64,000 bases of DNA. Source: Ignavibacteria bacterium RIFOXYC2_FULL_35_21 (lineage in GTDB: Bacteria > Bacteroidota > Ignavibacteria > Kapaibacteriales > UBA2268). The position numbers and the translations under genes are program-made. Where the stretch lies: the NCBI GenBank assembly GCA_001804705.1, contig MHAY01000060.1, positions 52,055-116,054 on the forward strand, given 5' to 3'. Below, piece by piece: positions 16,692-30,581 of this stretch. The notes under the pieces are model-generated. The model was not told the origin of the DNA. It saw nothing but the letters and a program-made list of their open reading frames with translations, and ran no database searches. Numbering within the stretch: the first letter of the stretch is position 1; the number at the start of each line of letters is the position of its first letter.

Positions 16692-17234
16692 TCATTTTAA
16701 TTTTTTTTCTAGAACATTTTGAATCTCTTCTTCTATTCCAGTTATATATCCCATCCTTTGCCAGGTAATTTCTCCTTTCTCATTGAAAAGAATATAATGA
16801 GGTTTATCATTAACATTCATAGCTCTTTTGAAATCGCTGTTCTCATCAAGATAAATATCAAACAGCCAACCTTTTCCCTTTGCCAAGGGAGCAACTTTTT
16901 TGCTGCTTCTCGAATCGTCAATACTTATTGCGATCACTTTAAGACTAAATTTATCCTGCAATTCGCTATAATTATCAGCTAATCCATCCAGGGCTTTCAA
17001 GCTTGGACTACAGCAGGATCCAAAAAAGACAATAAGTAATGGATTCTGATCACTTGCCAGATATTTGGTGTCAATACTTTCTCCTTTCAGGTTCTTTATT
17101 TTTACAGAAGGGATTGAATTAATTTGTGAAAAAACCTTATTAAAAAGAATTAACAACACTACAATTATTGAAAATGATATAGTACGAATTTTCTTTGACA
17201 ATTTTAACTTCATATTTTTCTTTATAGTATTCAA
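16692..17234 (-). CDS. TlpA/redoxin-like exported thioredoxin-fold protein with a non-canonical CCSPS site
   Basis: Signal/anchor helix. PLLIVFFGSCCSPSLKAL aligns with the WCGPC region of TlpA-type proteins, with Trp replaced by Cys and the resolving Cys replaced by Ser. Confidence 0.6.
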   Translation of the reverse strand: MNTIKKNMKLKLSKKIRTISFSIIVVLLILFNKVFSQINSIPSVKIKNLKGESIDTKYLASDQNPLLIVFFGSCCSPSLKALDGLADNYSELQDKFSLKVIAISIDDSRSSKKVAPLAKGKGWLFDIYLDENSDFKRAMNVNDKPHYILFNEKGEITWQRMGYITGIEEEIQNVLEKKLK

Positions 17235-21580: not shown

Positions 21581-22249
21581 TTAATTCACAATACTTCCTT
21601 TATCTATATGAATCCTAATATTACCATATTTAGAAGCCGTGGGACTATGCGTTACCATAGCAATAGTTATTTGATTCTCGATATTGATTCTTTTTAAAAC
21701 TTCCAAAATTTCAATAGATAAGGCAGGGTCAAGATTGCCAGTAGGTTCGTCTGCTAAAATCAGATTAGGCTTGTTTACTAAGGCTCTCGCAATTGCTACT
21801 CTTTGCTGTTGACCTGCGGATAGCTCTTTAGGTAAATGATTCATTCTATCTTTTAAACCAACTGTTTCAAGTAAATGAATGGCATAATCACTTTTAGTTC
21901 TTTCTCCGTTTTGATTCAAAGATAAAGGAATAAGTACGTTGTTTAGTACAGACAAATATGGAATCAAACTGAAATTTTGCATAACAAAACCTATATGCTT
22001 GCTTCTGATGCCGGCTAATACATTATCAGAAGCAGAATGGAGTTCATGTTTCTGAAATTTGATTGAACCTGCTGTTGGTCTTAATAATCCGGCAAGTAAC
22101 AGCAATAGAGTCGTTTTGCCTGAGCCGGAAGGTCCGGTGATTGTAACAAAATCACCTTGATTGAATCCTAAGTTAATATCCTTAATCGCTTCTACGATAC
22201 CATCTTTATGTTTGTAAAATTTCGATAATCCTTTTGTTTCTATTAACAT
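21581..22249 (-). CDS. ABC transporter ATP-binding protein, MacB/LolD type (module 1)
   Basis: [40 protein letters not shown] and VTHS. Confidence 0.9.
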   Translation of the reverse strand: MLIETKGLSKFYKHKDGIVEAIKDINLGFNQGDFVTITGPSGSGKTTLLLLLAGLLRPTAGSIKFQKHELHSASDNVLAGIRSKHIGFVMQNFSLIPYLSVLNNVLIPLSLNQNGERTKSDYAIHLLETVGLKDRMNHLPKELSAGQQQRVAIARALVNKPNLILADEPTGNLDPALSIEILEVLKRINIENQITIAMVTHSPTASKYGNIRIHIDKGSIVN

Positions 22250-22250
22250 T

Positions 22251-23468
22251 TTAAGCCTCCTGCATAATTTTATATGGTTCTATTTTACCTGCTAAATATG
22301 CAGGAATTAAAGAACCTAAAAGAGAAATAAGTAATGATATTAAAACTGACCAAAGCAAGAATATTGGTATAGGTTCAATATTCAAACCCGCTAACTGTGG
22401 TCCGAGTATTACACCTGATAAAGTACCGATAATATAACCCAATATACCGCCAATAATTCCGAGTATAGAAGCTTTAAGTAAAAGCATCTCATAAATTCTG
22501 CCCTTTGTGAAGCCAATCATTCTATAAGTTCCCAATTCTTTCTTTCTTTCATTAACATTTGCCCAGATAGAATTTCCTATTGAAATACCTCCGACAAAAA
22601 GAATTATAATTAGGAAAATAATTGAAATTTTATTCATTAATTGATTTGTCTTTATTTGCGTTGAAACAATTTGATTGATGGTAGTTATTTTAGTATCGGG
22701 TAGTATATTCCTTAATTTACCAAGCAATCCATCGCTTATTGCATTACAACAACCCATAATTTCAATGACACTCACCTGGTTTTCAATGCCGGTCAATTTC
22801 TGTACAGCATGTAAATGTGCAAATATCCTATCGTCGTCAATTGTACCTGTTTCGCCCAACACATTGAAAACTTTAAAATCACTACCGAGAATATTGACAT
22901 TTTCACCTTGTCTTAATTTCAAAGTAGTAGCAATATTAGACCCGACAATACATTCATTTTGTTGCAAAGTTTCAATTGGTTTTCTTTGAAGACGAACATC
23001 TTCATAACCGTGTGATTTATTAGCAGCGCTTGTGTCACAGGTTGCTTTCAATGCTTGTCCTGATAAACCTGAAGTTTGCCAAACGGGTTTTGAAATAATT
23101 TCATTAGAAGGCAATATACCAGTCAAAACAACGCTTTGGTTGTTGATTTTAATCCTACGAGTCAGTTTTGGAGATATATTATCTACTCCCTGTAATGTTG
23201 AAGTTCTAATCTTTTCGACATAATCTTCAGGAAAAGTTGGAGCATCTATATCTGCCGAGTAATAGTTATCAATGCTGGTTCCCTGAGGCAACACTAAAAT
23301 ATTAGCACCAAGATTATCGAGGTTGACAGCTACAGCTTTTTCTGAAACAACAGCAACAGAGCGAATACCTACTATCACTCCGATTCCAAGAGTAATTGCT
23401 AATAGTGCCGTTATCAATTGAGATTTTCGATGCCATATCTCTATTAACACTAATTTATAAATTTTCAT
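22251..23468 (-). CDS. ABC transporter permease, FtsX/MacB/LolC type (module 1)
   Basis: Same 1+3 TM topology with a large periplasmic loop. The C-terminal motif is PAYLAGKIEPYKIMQEA. Confidence 0.85.
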   Translation of the reverse strand: MKIYKLVLIEIWHRKSQLITALLAITLGIGVIVGIRSVAVVSEKAVAVNLDNLGANILVLPQGTSIDNYYSADIDAPTFPEDYVEKIRTSTLQGVDNISPKLTRRIKINNQSVVLTGILPSNEIISKPVWQTSGLSGQALKATCDTSAANKSHGYEDVRLQRKPIETLQQNECIVGSNIATTLKLRQGENVNILGSDFKVFNVLGETGTIDDDRIFAHLHAVQKLTGIENQVSVIEIMGCCNAISDGLLGKLRNILPDTKITTINQIVSTQIKTNQLMNKISIIFLIIILFVGGISIGNSIWANVNERKKELGTYRMIGFTKGRIYEMLLLKASILGIIGGILGYIIGTLSGVILGPQLAGLNIEPIPIFLLWSVLISLLISLLGSLIPAYLAGKIEPYKIMQEA

Positions 23469-23500: not shown

Positions 23501-24241
23501 TTATTTGCAGACTTTACCACTACTGGGAGGACAACAACCGCTACTGACCTTTTTATTTGCTGCTTCAACTAAGCTTTTGGCTTCGGTGATCCCGTTGAAC
23601 ATAGATGAAATCTGACCTTGTGCATTGATAACATATGTTATAGGAAATGAGGCATTTTTATCAAATTTGAATTTATTGATAAATGTTTTTTCATTTTTAT
23701 CATCAATATCCAGATTAATAATTGTGGCTTTATCTTTCAAACTCTTACAGGCTGATTGGCAGGCATCTAATTGCTTTTTACTATTCGAGTCAAATTGTTT
23801 TGAAAAGATAACGAATACAGAATTACCTTCATAAATTGCCTTTAAAACATCTTCTTCTTTAGGCGAAGGAACCATATTAACAAGTTGTTCTGGCGTCAGA
23901 TTTTGGGTGGGAGCACCTCCTGCAACAAACCCGTTGGTTGCAATTACCAATATAAGTGGAGTTGGAGCTCCTGCTAAACGATAAGTTTGTACAAGTTTAT
24001 GATTAGCAATGCTTGTTCTATCTAATTCTAATACAGTAGATTTAGAAATAGACTTTTGAGCTTTTTCTGCCAGATTCATGGCTTCCTTAGTGTTGGGATT
24101 ACCTCTTTCAGTAACTACAAGGAATACGATTTTACCATTCTTGTTTGCATTCTCAATGTCTTGCTTTGTATCAGCCAAGGATACAAATAGGTTCGCAAAA
24201 AATAATGTTGCGATTAGAACGGAAATGCTTAAATTTTTCAT
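23501..24241 (-). CDS. Exported protein with two thioredoxin-like domains lacking CxxC and a C-terminal GCCPPSSGKVCK tail
   Basis: Signal peptide. Two Trx-fold-like halves (GKIVFLVVTE...TPLILVIATNG and NSVFVIFSK...FPITYVINAQG). The final 12 aa carry a vicinal Cys pair plus a third Cys. Confidence 0.5.
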   Translation of the reverse strand: MKNLSISVLIATLFFANLFVSLADTKQDIENANKNGKIVFLVVTERGNPNTKEAMNLAEKAQKSISKSTVLELDRTSIANHKLVQTYRLAGAPTPLILVIATNGFVAGGAPTQNLTPEQLVNMVPSPKEEDVLKAIYEGNSVFVIFSKQFDSNSKKQLDACQSACKSLKDKATIINLDIDDKNEKTFINKFKFDKNASFPITYVINAQGQISSMFNGITEAKSLVEAANKKVSSGCCPPSSGKVCK

Positions 24242-24301: not shown

Positions 24302-25384
24302 TTAAATGCGAAAATCCTGAGCAATCATAGTATCGGCTTCCTGATTTTTAAAATATTTCTTTTGGAACCACAATGCAACATTGACTAATGCAATCAGAGC
24401 CGGTACCTCAACTAATGGTCCTATTACTGCCGCAAATGCTTCACCTGAATTTATTCCGAATACTGCAACTGCTACTGCAATAGCTAATTCAAAATTGTTG
24501 CTTGCAGCCGTGAATGATAATGTAGCAGTTTTGGAATAATCTGCTCCAACTTTTTTACCCATATAAAATGAGACAAAAAACATTATAACGAAGTAAAGTA
24601 AAAGTGGTATCGCTATTCTTATTACATCAAAAGGTATTCTGACAATAAATTCCCCTTTTAAAGAAAACATTACGAATATTGTAAATAGCAAAGCTATCAA
24701 TGTAATGGGACTTATTTTAGGAATAAACTTTTTATGATACCATTCTTTGTTTTTGAATTTAATTAAAGTAAATCTGGTAAGGATGCCTGCAATGAAAGGG
24801 ATACCCAGATAAATAAATACACTTTCTGCTATTTGACCTATTGTAATATCTACCTTGAATGATTGCAGTCCGAGCCATTTTGGCAAAACTGTAATAAAAA
24901 CATAAGCATAAACGGAAAAAAACAGTACCTGGAAAATTGAGTTGAAAGCAACCAAACCTGCGGCATATTCTGTATCACCTTTGGCAAGCTCGTTCCATAC
25001 AATTACCATAGCAATACATCTTGCGAGTCCAATCAATATCAAACCAACCATGTAATGCGGATAGTCCTGAAGAAACAGAATTGCAAGAAAGAACATTAGG
25101 ATTGGACCGACAATCCAGTTTTGTACGAGTGATAATCCGAGAATTTTGAAATTCTTAAACACATCGCCCAGTTCTTCATATCTGACTTTGGCAAGCGGGG
25201 GATACATCATTAAAATTAGTCCCACGGCGATTGGAATGTTTGTAGTTCCCGATTGAAATTGGTTCCAGAAACCAACTATACCCGGGAATAAATAACCTGA
25301 CAATACACCTATAGCCATTGCAATGAATATCCACAATGTCAGGTATCTATCGAGAAAGCTAAGTTTTTGTGATATATTTTCCAT
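24302..25384 (-). CDS. acr3: ACR3-family arsenite efflux permease
   Basis: [22 protein letters not shown], and GLARCIAMV (containing the conserved Cys). Start placed at M12 (25384), just after the upstream stop. Confidence 0.9.
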
Positions 25385-25394
25385 TTTAATACTA

Positions 25395-26642
25395 TTATTT
25401 GTTAAACAGTTTTCCACCCATTAAATAAAAATATGCAGTTGCCCAATTTGCCAATAAAGTTGCAACACCGAAAATCAGCATACCAACACTGAACATAGCC
25501 CATGCTGATAAAATATTTCCAATAATACAACCGGTTGCAATTCCTGCACCAACTCCTATTAGAAATCCACCTAATGCCGCAATCAATATTTGACTTGGTT
25601 CCTTTGGTAAAAGTTTCGTTTGACCGGACATTAACCCGGATATAAATGCTCCAATTATAGTTCCTATTGAAAGTAGAATTAGCCATACACTGAGTTTCTT
25701 CGGTTCATATTTTGGAACGGCGACAGAAGGAATTTGAGCTGACTTTGTCTGTATGTATGTTATTGTACTATTAATATTAGTCTGTGCTTTGGGTTGAGGC
25801 TTCTGATAAATGAATCTTACATTATTATCAACAATTGCCTGATAAATATGATTAACACCATGCGTTACACCAAGAGGATAATTCCTGCCAACAGGCAATG
25901 ATGAGAGCCAAGCCAACATAGCAATTACTCCGATTGCAATACCAGTCTGCCAGGGTTTCCAGGATTTTGTAAATATCTTGTTAAATTGAAATTTGTCCTT
26001 TATGGTATTTTTTGTTCTTGTTTTCTTTTTTGAATTAATATAAATCAAAACAATAGTCAGCAGAAAAAACATTAAAACCAGCAGCCAGTACGGTAAACCT
26101 AATAACGAGTGCAGGGTAATTGCATTATCATTTTCACCATTTATAACGAAGCTAAGAAGAAATTTGTTGAATCCCTCCAGGGGGCCAAAATCAGCAAAAG
26201 AAATCCCAATTGGTATTGTTAAAAGTGCGGCAATGGAGTTAATATTTCCTGTTGCTCCTTTATACATACAACCGCTAATGCAGCCACCTCCTAAGACAGT
26301 GCCAACACCAAAAATTAATCCGCCAACTAATGCACTGAGCCAGATTAATTTTTTTGGAGCTAATTGTATGACACCTAAACTCTCAAAAATTGCAAACAGA
26401 ATCATTGATGTAAGAATTGCTATCCAGAATCCAAATAGTTTCTTAGAATCCCGCATAATGATTACTTCGCTCATAGCAGATGAACCGCACAGGTCACCCT
26501 TTTGGAGAGCAAATCCAAATAAGAAGCCAACTCCAATAGATAGGATAACCCATAATTCAGTTGCAACAGCAAGAATAACAACAGCTATAAAAAACAATGC
26601 AGAAATTGTTAATAATAATTTTAGATTATTTAATTGTCTCAT
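25395..26642 (-). CDS. YeeE/YedE-family (sulfur-compound transporter-like) membrane protein, full two-half fusion
   Basis: 415 aa with about 9-10 TM helices. Cys-containing re-entrant motifs are [21 protein letters not shown] and ATGCIIGN. Confidence 0.7.
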
Positions 26643-27512: not shown

Positions 27513-28451
27513 TTATGAATCTAAATTTATTTGCCATGTTAACATAATGCCAAAAGAATATGAGTTAGTCAATTGTTTGCCATTATAATATTTATAAAAA
27601 GGATAATCATAATTACAGGAAATATAAAAATTATCAATTTTATAACTAAGCTGTGGAGAGGCAACAAATACTAAACCACCCGAGTCTTCAATAATACTTC
27701 CGTTATATCTGTCTTTACCTCTATACTCATTTCTCAATTCTAAAATGCCGACAAGGTTATTGAAAATAGATTTTGATATATAGAACGAAGAGAAAATTGA
27801 ATAACCGTATAAATAATCGTGTTTGTTAATGGCATTGATTTCAGCCCTGTTTATCAGGAACAAATGCAAACCTTCGTTCTTAAATCCTTTGTGTAAAAAA
27901 GAGTGGAATAAAATCCCATAAGCACCGGTTGAAGGTAAAATATTCTGTGGTACGTTAGCTTCACTAAAGTTAACAGGCACTCTGGCGCCAATACCTGCCG
28001 TATATTCAAGCTCTTTTACCCTGCTGTTATACAGATTGTATTTAACAGATGTATTGAGATGTGAAAACCCCGAACTTTCTAATTTATAATAATAATAATC
28101 CTGCATTTTTTGGAGGAAATAACCCGACTCTAATTCCAAAGTTAAATCTTCTGTTAAGCCATAGCCGGTATTGAATCCGATATAATTAAATTTATATTCT
28201 TTTACTAATCCCGGTTCGGTTATGATGTCACCTGAATAGTATTTATTGCCATAACCATTCATAAAAAATACTGATGTCCGAAGATTGTTTTCTTTCAGAA
28301 CTCCCAGATTTGCCGAACCACCTAATGGTGTCAGACCACCCACTGCAGCACCTCCCATACATCCACACTGTGAATATAGGCTGTAACCGCATAAAAATAT
28401 AATTGTAATAAAAACACTAATTTTCATCATTATACTCTTCAATAATTTCAA
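27513..28451 (-). CDS. Predicted outer-membrane beta-barrel protein with an N-terminal QCGCMGG motif
   Basis: Signal peptide (..GYSLYS), then CGC directly after the predicted cleavage site. The rest has Tyr/Gly/Asn-rich alternating strands. Family unknown. The start may be M8/M9. Confidence 0.45.
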   Translation of the reverse strand: MKLLKSIMMKISVFITIIFLCGYSLYSQCGCMGGAAVGGLTPLGGSANLGVLKENNLRTSVFFMNGYGNKYYSGDIITEPGLVKEYKFNYIGFNTGYGLTEDLTLELESGYFLQKMQDYYYYKLESSGFSHLNTSVKYNLYNSRVKELEYTAGIGARVPVNFSEANVPQNILPSTGAYGILFHSFLHKGFKNEGLHLFLINRAEINAINKHDYLYGYSIFSSFYISKSIFNNLVGILELRNEYRGKDRYNGSIIEDSGGLVFVASPQLSYKIDNFYISCNYDYPFYKYYNGKQLTNSYSFGIMLTWQINLDS

Positions 28452-30236: not shown

Positions 30237-30581
30237 TTAAATATTACAAATCTTGTTTCTATCTACAATTTCGAGTTTCCGTTTATCGGCTTTTATTCTT
30301 GCTTCATCATTAAACCATTCAGGCAGTAGCTTCATTAGTTTCCTGACCTGGAGATTTTCAGCTTTGTCATTTAGTTTGTAATCAACCCACTTGCCGTTCT
30401 TTTCATCGAGTATAAATCCGGCTTCCCGTAATAGGGAAAGGTGCTTCGATACAGTTGAATTTGCAAGGTTCAGAACTGCCCTTATTTCGCAAACACACAT
30501 TGGGCTGTCTTCGAGCATCTTAAGAATGCGAAGCCTGTTTGAATCCGATAAAGCTTTAAATATTTTAACATAATTTCTCAT
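30237..30581 (-). CDS. arsR: ArsR/SmtB family metalloregulator (CVC As(III) site), first copy
   Basis: RILKMLEDSPMCVCEIRAVLNLANSTVSKHLSLLREAGFI. Confidence 0.9.
   Translation of the reverse strand: MRNYVKIFKALSDSNRLRILKMLEDSPMCVCEIRAVLNLANSTVSKHLSLLREAGFILDEKNGKWVDYKLNDKAENLQVRKLMKLLPEWFNDEARIKADKRKLEIVDRNKICNI

Follow-up and report, generated by a model that had tools for sequence, protein, structure and literature searches.

What does an exported protein from a family without a curated name contribute to an arsenic resistance (ars) operon? The question is raised by gene X, which lies in a 64,000-nucleotide (nt) stretch of contig MHAY01000060.1 from Ignavibacteria bacterium RIFOXYC2_FULL_35_21. 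This whole stretch is called the window, and positions are those of the window unless a locus label precedes them. Gene X occupies 23501..24241 on the minus strand (stop codon included) and encodes an exported tandem thioredoxin-fold protein with a C-terminal tail that carries three cysteines. A preliminary description of this DNA had proposed that X captures arsenite released into the periplasm by the efflux permease ACR3 and delivers it to the adjacent ATP-binding cassette (ABC) exporter, as an exported analogue of the cytoplasmic chaperone ArsD. X is very probably an exported partner dedicated to a type VII ABC and part of the ars regulon. It is a good candidate for an arsenite-handling chaperone that acts outside the cytoplasm, which would be the first of its kind. 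The odds are about even (probability roughly 0.5) that the arm of X exchanges As(III) or Sb(III) with a cysteine triad of the permease through ATP-driven mechanotransmission.

Gene X, a permease gene and an ATPase gene form a trio whose order is constant. The X-seeded loci come from contigs with homologs from a first, word-indexed search and from a scan of GTDB-species genomes with a 16-sequence alignment. In these loci, the order X-permease-ATPase is present in 30 of 30 distinct cases. The ATPase gene is seen after the permease gene in 28 of the 30, and the other two loci are cut by contig ends. All are from metagenome-assembled genomes (MAGs) and belong to the Ignavibacteria, Kapabacteria, Bacteroidota, Zixibacteria and Eisenbacteria. 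An independent metagenome scan seeded with the permease gives a congruent result. Among the best 80 of its 587 confirmed matches, 61 loci have 800 nt or more of upstream sequence, and X lies beside the permease gene in all 61. It is directly upstream in 60; in the remaining locus (L113), it is downstream, past the ATPase gene and arsR. These and all other locus counts are samples of the scanned collections. The spacers within the trio are mostly 3-46 nt, or the genes overlap. The constant partner of X is the type VII ABC pair and not ACR3, to which the preliminary description had assigned the supply of arsenite; the trio occurs without acr3 within 10 kb (L002 and L010), and in L002 and L003 the order is arsR-X-permease-ATPase with no acr3 nearby.

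The permease gene of the window (22251..23468, minus strand) encodes a type VII (MacB/LolC-fold) ABC membrane subunit with Pfam matches to MacB_PCD and FtsX. Its best structural matches in Foldseek are LolCDE, MacB, Spr0694-0695, HrtBA and YbbAP. The partner ATPase (21581..22249, minus strand) retains, in its sequence, an intact Walker A motif (GPSGSGKTT), signature (LSAGQQQR) and Walker B motif (LILADEP). The permease has three periplasmic cysteines, C144, C240 and C241, which are invariant in 26 of 26 distinct sequences, and the pair falls within the motif IEIMGCC[NS]AIS[DE]GLL. In the permease model, which has a moderate predicted local distance difference test score (pLDDT) of 66, C144 belongs to a loop of some 30 residues (126-157) that is modelled with low confidence. 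C240-C241 is located where a strand gives way to another low-confidence loop (241-245), which leads into a helix.

The X protein also carries a cysteine triad, and this triad is conserved across a large family. The word-indexed search returned 42 relatives of X, in MAGs of the Ignavibacteria, Kapabacteria and Bacteroidota. In an exhaustive profile search of 1.84 billion representatives, 671 X-family clusters are found at E<=1e-3 and 491 at E<=1e-10. The homologs are annotated as "hypothetical protein" in the source databases, and the family is large and uncharacterised, without a curated family, a named protein or a solved relative. Conservation was scored in a pooled sample of 255 distinct full-length members. 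As the preliminary description would expect, the tail cysteines are kept: three or more are present in 234 of the 255 members (92%). This is an undercount, because some members, such as P0160, place the triad ahead of a Ser/Thr-rich extension. In the window, the flexible tail spans residues 229-246 (ANKKVSSGCCPPSSGKVCK; 23504..23557, minus strand) with a pLDDT of 46-57. The protein ends in ...KKVSSGCCPPSSGKVCK, and the disordered region carries the tri-Cys sequence SSGCCPPSSGKVCK, with cysteines at positions 236, 237 and 245.

The spacing of the three cysteines is less constant than their number. Among the 234 tri-Cys tails, 156 have a CC-x3..11-C arrangement (mode x7) and 78 have a C-x3-5-C-x3-5-C arrangement (for example, GCGPGCGPAGCGK). 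On a tree of the folded body only, there are at least 42 switches between the two arrangements, compared with a mean of 65 for shuffled states; this tree was built with FastTree only and the comparison is approximate. The three thiols of the CC...C geometry first proposed for As(III) binding are therefore conserved, but the vicinal pair is dispensable. The tails consist mainly of Gly, Lys, Cys, Ser, Ala and Pro. Because the count of three is kept while the spacing varies, selection acts on the number of thiols and not on a rigid motif. Three thiols on a flexible, basic arm are the expectation for a three-sulfur (S3) soft-metalloid site, as opposed to a rigid structural motif. A role for the tail as a sorting signal of the MYXO-CTERM, GlyGly-CTERM or type IX secretion system kind was considered and rejected, as the tail is without a hydrophobic segment or a C-terminal domain.

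Within the folded body, P95 is present in 255 of 255 family members and E184 in 252 of 255. G104, G209, N80, D181 and N206 are each kept in at least 85% of members. The conserved residues T44, P95 and N103-G104 lie on the canonical thioredoxin active-site surface. The remaining cysteines are less conserved than P95 or E184, with C161 found in 199 members (78%) and C165 in 105 (41%).

X is read from a 246-amino-acid open reading frame (ORF) on the minus strand with an ATG start, according to the ORF list and translation. The sequence AGGAG lies 7 nt 5' of the ATG. On the plus strand, 23501..24241 contains no open frame and many stops. The protein has five cysteines: C161 and C165, which form a CxxxC within a helix, and C236, C237 and C245. 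There is no CxxC in its sequence. In an AlphaFold2 model built on the 42 homologs (pLDDT 88.4; predicted template modelling score 0.78), X begins with a leader helix, continues with two beta-alpha-beta-alpha-beta-beta-alpha units, at residues 25-121 and 127-228, and closes with a tail modelled at low confidence. The first thioredoxin-like domain (residues 25-121; 23879..24169, minus strand), recognised from the order of secondary structure in the model, is without a CxxC and has P95 at the cis-Pro position. The second (residues 127-228; 23558..23863, minus strand), recognised by hhalign comparison with the first, carries the C161/C165 CxxxC on helix alpha-1. The two halves are homologous over 97 columns (hhalign probability 99.1%, E 1e-18) and are a true internal duplication.

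Structural comparison gives a similar picture. In Foldseek searches of the PDB, the top 50 matches of X are thioredoxin-fold proteins throughout, and the tandem thioredoxin-fold matches are calsequestrin, Eps1p, Pyrococcus furiosus PDO, the b-b' domains of protein disulfide isomerase (PDI) and the N-terminal domain of AhpF. These matches have E-values of about 2e-6 to 1e-4 and a probability of 1.00, with a TM-score of only about 0.3 and an identity of 10-17%. The low TM-score indicates that the domain orientation of X differs from that of tandem thioredoxin proteins of the PDI or calsequestrin type. PDI b-b', calsequestrin, P. furiosus PDO and the AhpF N-terminal domain are redox-inactive tandem thioredoxin folds. 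Unlike X, the tandem matches are eukaryotic endoplasmic reticulum or cytoplasmic proteins and do not carry a tri-Cys tail. Sequence-level matches are sparser. A profile of the 42 homologs compared with all PDB sequences at E<=10 retrieves four chains, and a b-type domain of PDIA5 (E 0.008) is the only sequence-level match. In Pfam and NCBIfam, X has sub-threshold thioredoxin-like or ResA-like matches only. Matches to the PDI b'-like families Thioredoxin_6 and Thioredoxin_8 both fall short of the curated threshold; the latter (residues 141-192) reaches 20.6 bits where 27 are required. Precomputed Pfam annotation assigns PF13848 to some homologs, and the contig annotations grade it faint. The model, Foldseek, hhalign and the sequence thus agree on two thioredoxin-fold halves without a CxxC, as originally described. 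A Sco-like CxxxC copper site at C161/C165 was rejected; the two residues are at the middle to end of helix alpha-1, off the thioredoxin active-site position, and C165 is kept in 41% of members.

The export signal is similarly widespread. The predicted Sec signal peptide covers residues 1-23 (MKNLSISVLIATLFFANLFVSLA; 24173..24241, minus strand), with cleavage before DT. It was read from the sequence and corresponds to the lone, low-pLDDT N-terminal helix of the model. In the N-terminus, MKNLSISVLIATLFFANLFVSLA|DTKQD, a basic n-region precedes a hydrophobic core and a small-x-small site. By a sequence heuristic, and not a trained predictor, a hydrophobic leader is present in 250 of 252 family members with a usable N-terminus. 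About 204 of these leaders are of the signal-peptidase-I type and up to 46 are lipobox-like. These features are congruent with the export proposed from the sequence of X itself. X was also considered as lipoprotein cargo of a Lol-type system, and this was rejected because most members are without a lipobox.

In the window, the gene order is arsR-arsC-arsM-...-acr3-X. The minus-strand gene string that holds X is headed by an arsR of the CVC type (30237..30581, minus strand; sequence ...SPMCVCEIRAVL...). The gene directly upstream of X is acr3, which encodes the arsenite efflux permease (24302..25417, minus strand; Pfam SBF, E 2.4e-62). The position of X between acr3 and the MacB-type permease gene is as first reported, with measured spacers of 60 and 32 nt, respectively. 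No terminator-like hairpin was found between acr3, X and the permease gene. The placement within an ars operon extends beyond this genome: an ars gene is present within 10 kb in 26 of the 30 X-seeded loci, including arsR in 24, acr3 in 23, arsC in 13 and arsM in 7. In relatives, the gene immediately upstream of X is usually an arsR. In 18 of 25 distinct ArsRs encoded adjacently upstream, there is a CxC motif (ELCVC, CICGD or YCLCGTC). The C-x-C-x-x-C spacing of YCLCGTC is that of Cys32/34/37 in R773 ArsR. Several adjacent ArsRs without a CxC carry C-terminal cysteine pairs. Two ArsRs (L022:9445-9831 and L026:9437-9838) have a single alpha-3 cysteine (ELCVSD) and end in ...RASGGCCPK and ...RSGGCCP, close to the ...SSGCCPP of X. 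Judged by their sequences, these CCP-tailed ArsRs may have a C-terminal As(III) sensing site of the kind found in Acidithiobacillus ferrooxidans ArsR.

The source genome, which is 97.75% complete, contains no DsbB (PF02600), VKOR (PF07884) or ArsD (PF06953). It is probably without the usual periplasmic disulfide-forming pathway, and the absence of DsbB and VKOR makes free periplasmic thiols plausible. The island around X is rich in exported CxxC thioredoxins. The trio is present once in the source genome and is absent from the six other genomes sampled in its family.

These features are consistent with the following mechanism. The three-thiol arm of X would bind As(III) through trigonal S3 coordination, as in ArsD, ArsR and ArsA, and would probably bind Sb(III) likewise. 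The arm would trade the metalloid with the periplasmic cysteine triad of the permease by thiol ligand exchange. ATP binding and hydrolysis would reshape the periplasmic domain of the permease (mechanotransmission) and so drive loading or unloading, with the ATP cycle opening or closing the metalloid site of the permease to drive transfer. The outcome would be that periplasmic arsenite, whether from ACR3 or from the environment, is kept off envelope thiols. Transfer could run from X to the permease, as in the preliminary description, or from the permease to X, as from LolCDE to LolA. To our knowledge, no transmembrane substrate path is known for MacB/Lol-fold ABCs, which work by periplasmic mechanotransmission. 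Without such a path and without an outer-membrane exit, delivery to the ABC is only one of several possible directions.

Precedents exist for both parts of this mechanism. Three-thiolate sites for As(III) are formed by ArsD Cys12/13/18, R773 ArsR Cys32/34/37 and A. ferrooxidans ArsR Cys95/96/102, and the first and last of these are precedents for a flexible CC...C as an S3 site (PMC12607644). The transfer of As(III) from ArsD to ArsA requires ATP hydrolysis (PMC12607644). All four type VII ABCs of Escherichia coli have a dedicated periplasmic partner and act by mechanotransmission (PMC12646458). More tentatively, and at somewhat worse than even odds, the trio is an unrecognised three-gene arsenic determinant for ATP-powered periplasmic metalloid hand-off, in which the type VII ABC would use mechanotransmission to place As(III) or Sb(III) on, or remove it from, the swinging tri-thiol arm that X carries. 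The preliminary description is supported in part: the exported double-thioredoxin protein, its tail and the ars operon stand, while the vicinal pair, the ACR3 partner and the relationship to ArsD do not.

Several observations weigh against the exchange of metalloid between X and the permease. Metalloid binding by X is read from the number of its cysteines and from gene context only. The permease model, in which C144 and C240/C241 were located, has a pLDDT of only 66. C161, which is conserved in 78% of members, has no explanation under this mechanism. The conserved core contains no outer-membrane or adaptor gene, so there is no evident exit for bound arsenite. Arsenite as As(OH)3 can in any case leave the periplasm unaided through porins. 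Four of the 30 X-seeded loci have no ars gene nearby. In one of these, from a Chitinophaga MAG with full flanks (L010:7372-12672), the trio lies past molybdopterin genes (moeB/moaE/moaC-moaB-like) and neither an ArsR nor another ars gene occurs within 10 kb, which makes this locus the single clear exception in context. The distribution of the trio is rare and sporadic (3 of 401 genomes sampled across the phylum), and all carriers are uncultured MAGs or metagenome contigs. The locus is found in DNA runs of groundwater and soil metagenomes only, and its words are absent from the listed metatranscriptomes.

Other explanations account for part of the evidence. X could serve as a mechanotransmission partner for an envelope substrate damaged by arsenic, with a protein or lipid repaired, extracted or remodelled as by FtsEX-EnvC, LolCDE-LolA and YbbAP-TesA. 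The cysteines would then link X to the permease through disulfides or bind a structural metal, and arsenite would not be carried. The known type VII ABCs do use periplasmic partners to act on proteins or lipids (PMC12646458). The PDI b-b'-like fold of X is a peptide-binding scaffold, and T44, P95 and N103-G104 are conserved at the canonical thioredoxin active-site surface. However, three thiols per partner with free spacing fit soft-metalloid coordination better than disulfides, since an odd number leaves one thiol unpaired. The genome is without DsbB or VKOR for disulfide formation, and no conserved neighbour of the trio encodes a candidate substrate. This explanation is rather unlikely. A passive role for X, which we consider unlikely, would involve no hand-off. 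X would be a periplasmic thiol decoy that soaks up arsenite or methylarsenite and shields envelope thiol proteins, with the ABC used otherwise, for example in the turnover or release of loaded X. Such a decoy is congruent with an exported, flexible, multi-thiol tail inside an ars regulon and with a conserved core that has no outer-membrane exit. A stoichiometric sponge does not explain the strict coupling of X, permease and ATPase in 30 of 30 and 61 of 61 loci, the permease's own invariant cysteine triad or the strong conservation on the surfaces of the folded domains (P95, E184, N80, G104 and G209).

The identity of the ligand and the chemistry of the tail can also be read differently. It is distinctly improbable that the ligand of the trio is another thiophilic element (Sb(III), Bi, Hg(II), Cd(II), Pb(II) or Cu(I)) and that its presence in ars islands only reflects the clustering of ArsR/SmtB regulators and resistance islands. 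The neighbouring genes are arsenic-specific (arsC in 13, arsM in 7 and acr3 in 23 of 30 loci) and the adjacent ArsRs have arsenite-type CxC(xxC) motifs. Consistent with another element, ArsR/SmtB regulators respond to many soft metals, S3 sites also fit Pb(II) and Sb(III), the L010 trio is without ars neighbours, and some family members (P0119, P0138 and P0149) have tail variants that contain His. However, the five variant members examined are not followed by this ABC. A sulfur-carrier role is highly improbable. The tail resembles the C-terminal, Gly-rich, Cys-bearing carrier arm of SoxY, and its cysteines, as persulfides, would carry sulfane sulfur that turns periplasmic arsenite into thioarsenicals or an insoluble sulfide. 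A YeeE/YedE sulfur-transporter homolog is present in the island of the window and the hosts are from anoxic groundwater and sediment, both of which would suit this chemistry. YeeE is confined to the lineage of this window, however, and no sulfur-transfer gene (rhodanese, TusA or Sox) is conserved with the trio. SoxY also uses one cysteine and not three.

The proposed metalloid exchange between X and its permease resembles several known systems without matching any of them. With ArsD, X shares the concept of a thioredoxin fold that has no redox CxxC and of three cysteines, including a vicinal pair (12/13/18 in ArsD). In ArsD, these cysteines bind As(III) and hand it to an ATPase-driven machine, as they would in X. 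X is exported and has two thioredoxin domains, whereas ArsD is cytoplasmic. The thiols of X are on a disordered C-terminal tail (236, 237 and 245), whereas those of ArsD are on the loop after beta-1. The partner is a type VII ABC permease and ATPase for X and ArsA for ArsD. Homology to ArsD (PF06953) was rejected: X has no Pfam match at E<=0.01 and no ArsD chain appears in the PDB profile search at E<=10. The structural comparison with ArsD suggested in the preliminary description gives the same answer, as ArsD is absent from the Foldseek top 50 of the predicted X structure. The likeness to ArsD is thus limited to the thioredoxin fold without a CxxC, which is generic to the thioredoxin superfamily, and does not extend to sequence homology, location or partner. 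A. ferrooxidans ArsR resembles the X tail in having a vicinal CC (Cys95/96) and a third cysteine (Cys102) near a flexible C-terminus (PMC12607644). It differs in being a cytoplasmic DNA-binding repressor of unrelated fold that senses arsenic rather than carrying it.

By context and export signal, X belongs to the class of periplasmic partners of a MacB-fold permease and ATPase, which includes LolA (LolCDE), EnvC (FtsEX), MacA (MacB) and TesA (YbbAP) (PMC12646458). No homology of X to LolA, EnvC, MacA or TesA is detected in Pfam, NCBIfam or the Foldseek top 50. Three features are new compared with known type VII partners: the combination of a tandem thioredoxin fold and a thiol tail, a cysteine triad on each of the two partners, and control by ArsR. 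The trio also has no conserved membrane-fusion or outer-membrane component. There is also a likeness to the mercury relay, in which the CxxC of MerP, the vicinal CC of MerT and the C-terminal CC tail of MerA pass a soft metal by ligand exchange. The folds differ, and the Mer relay imports metal for reduction, is not ATP-driven and involves no ABC.

In the searched literature, no paper ties arsenic to a MacB/FtsX-type ABC or describes a periplasmic thiol chaperone for arsenite. Arsenic detoxification is described almost wholly as cytoplasmic chemistry and inner-membrane efflux, and the fate of periplasmic arsenite in diderms is hardly addressed. The X family is a concrete candidate for arsenic handling on the envelope side. 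Type VII ABCs are known from efflux, lipoprotein sorting, cell division and lipid hydrolysis; the X family would extend their periplasmic partners to a fifth kind and place them in a metalloid context. If the proposed function is correct, X would extend thiol-based metalloid chaperones beyond the cytoplasm for the first time, and among type VII ABCs its partner would be the first with a dedicated inorganic substrate. If metalloid passes between the two cysteine triads, the trio could be a compact module for engineering As/Sb tolerance or capture, and it could mark arsenic cycling in anoxic groundwater communities. In a tblastn search of X against 72,556 plasmids, there was no match.

Five family members with His-rich tails or fewer than three tail cysteines (P0119, P0127, P0138, P0143 and P0149) were examined as variants, and none is followed by the ABC. 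The tails of P0119 (HDYDHEHGEDCNH; L118) and P0138 (CSHGSCGHQH; L120) have one or two cysteines and several His. That of P0149 (CSHGCCGHHH; L117) has three cysteines and several His, and this variant lies past a Mem_trans/SBF-like permease. P0143 ends in GCGCGSH and P0127 in HAHTGSCCPR. From their sequences, the variants with His-rich tails may be versions with a different metal specificity. A divergent pair of X paralogs is present in an ars island without a type VII ABC (L122:6624-9861, also L123). Here, the gene order is ArsP-arsR-acetyltransferase-arsC-acr3-...-DsbD_2-Thioredoxin_3-ArsP_1 permease-X variant-tail-less X paralog. In L122, the pair follows a 447-amino-acid ArsP_1-family permease; one paralog has the HAHTGSCCPR tail and a lipobox, and the other is tail-less. 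More than one kind of membrane permease may thus serve as partner to the X family. These five cases hint that the tri-Cys tail and the tri-Cys ABC travel together, and that the wider family keeps its ties to ars loci and membrane permeases.

Two further forms of X-like proteins were observed. P0190 (376 amino acids) has an extra, duplicated, Cys-rich module (GCTCECDLTLKDCQEKDPDCTTRP / GCPCGCGFTLESCEREDPECTTRP) at the N-terminus, before the two thioredoxin domains, and this module has no match in Pfam. In a Lentimicrobiaceae MAG, a second, weaker X-like ORF (L018:4130-4996; phmmer score 99) lies downstream of the trio, past a weak arsC-like ORF.

Two other exported proteins of the island have closely spaced cysteines. 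A predicted outer-membrane protein (27513-28451, minus strand) has a CGC motif just past its signal peptide (YSQCGCMGG), and its homologs lie near the X trio in two other genomes (L007:1261-2193 and L012:6960-8135). It is a candidate for the outer-membrane end of a thiol relay, although it is outside the conserved core. In a TlpA-like exported thioredoxin (16692-17234, minus strand), SCCSPS replaces the WCxPC motif, which gives another vicinal cysteine pair in the same island.

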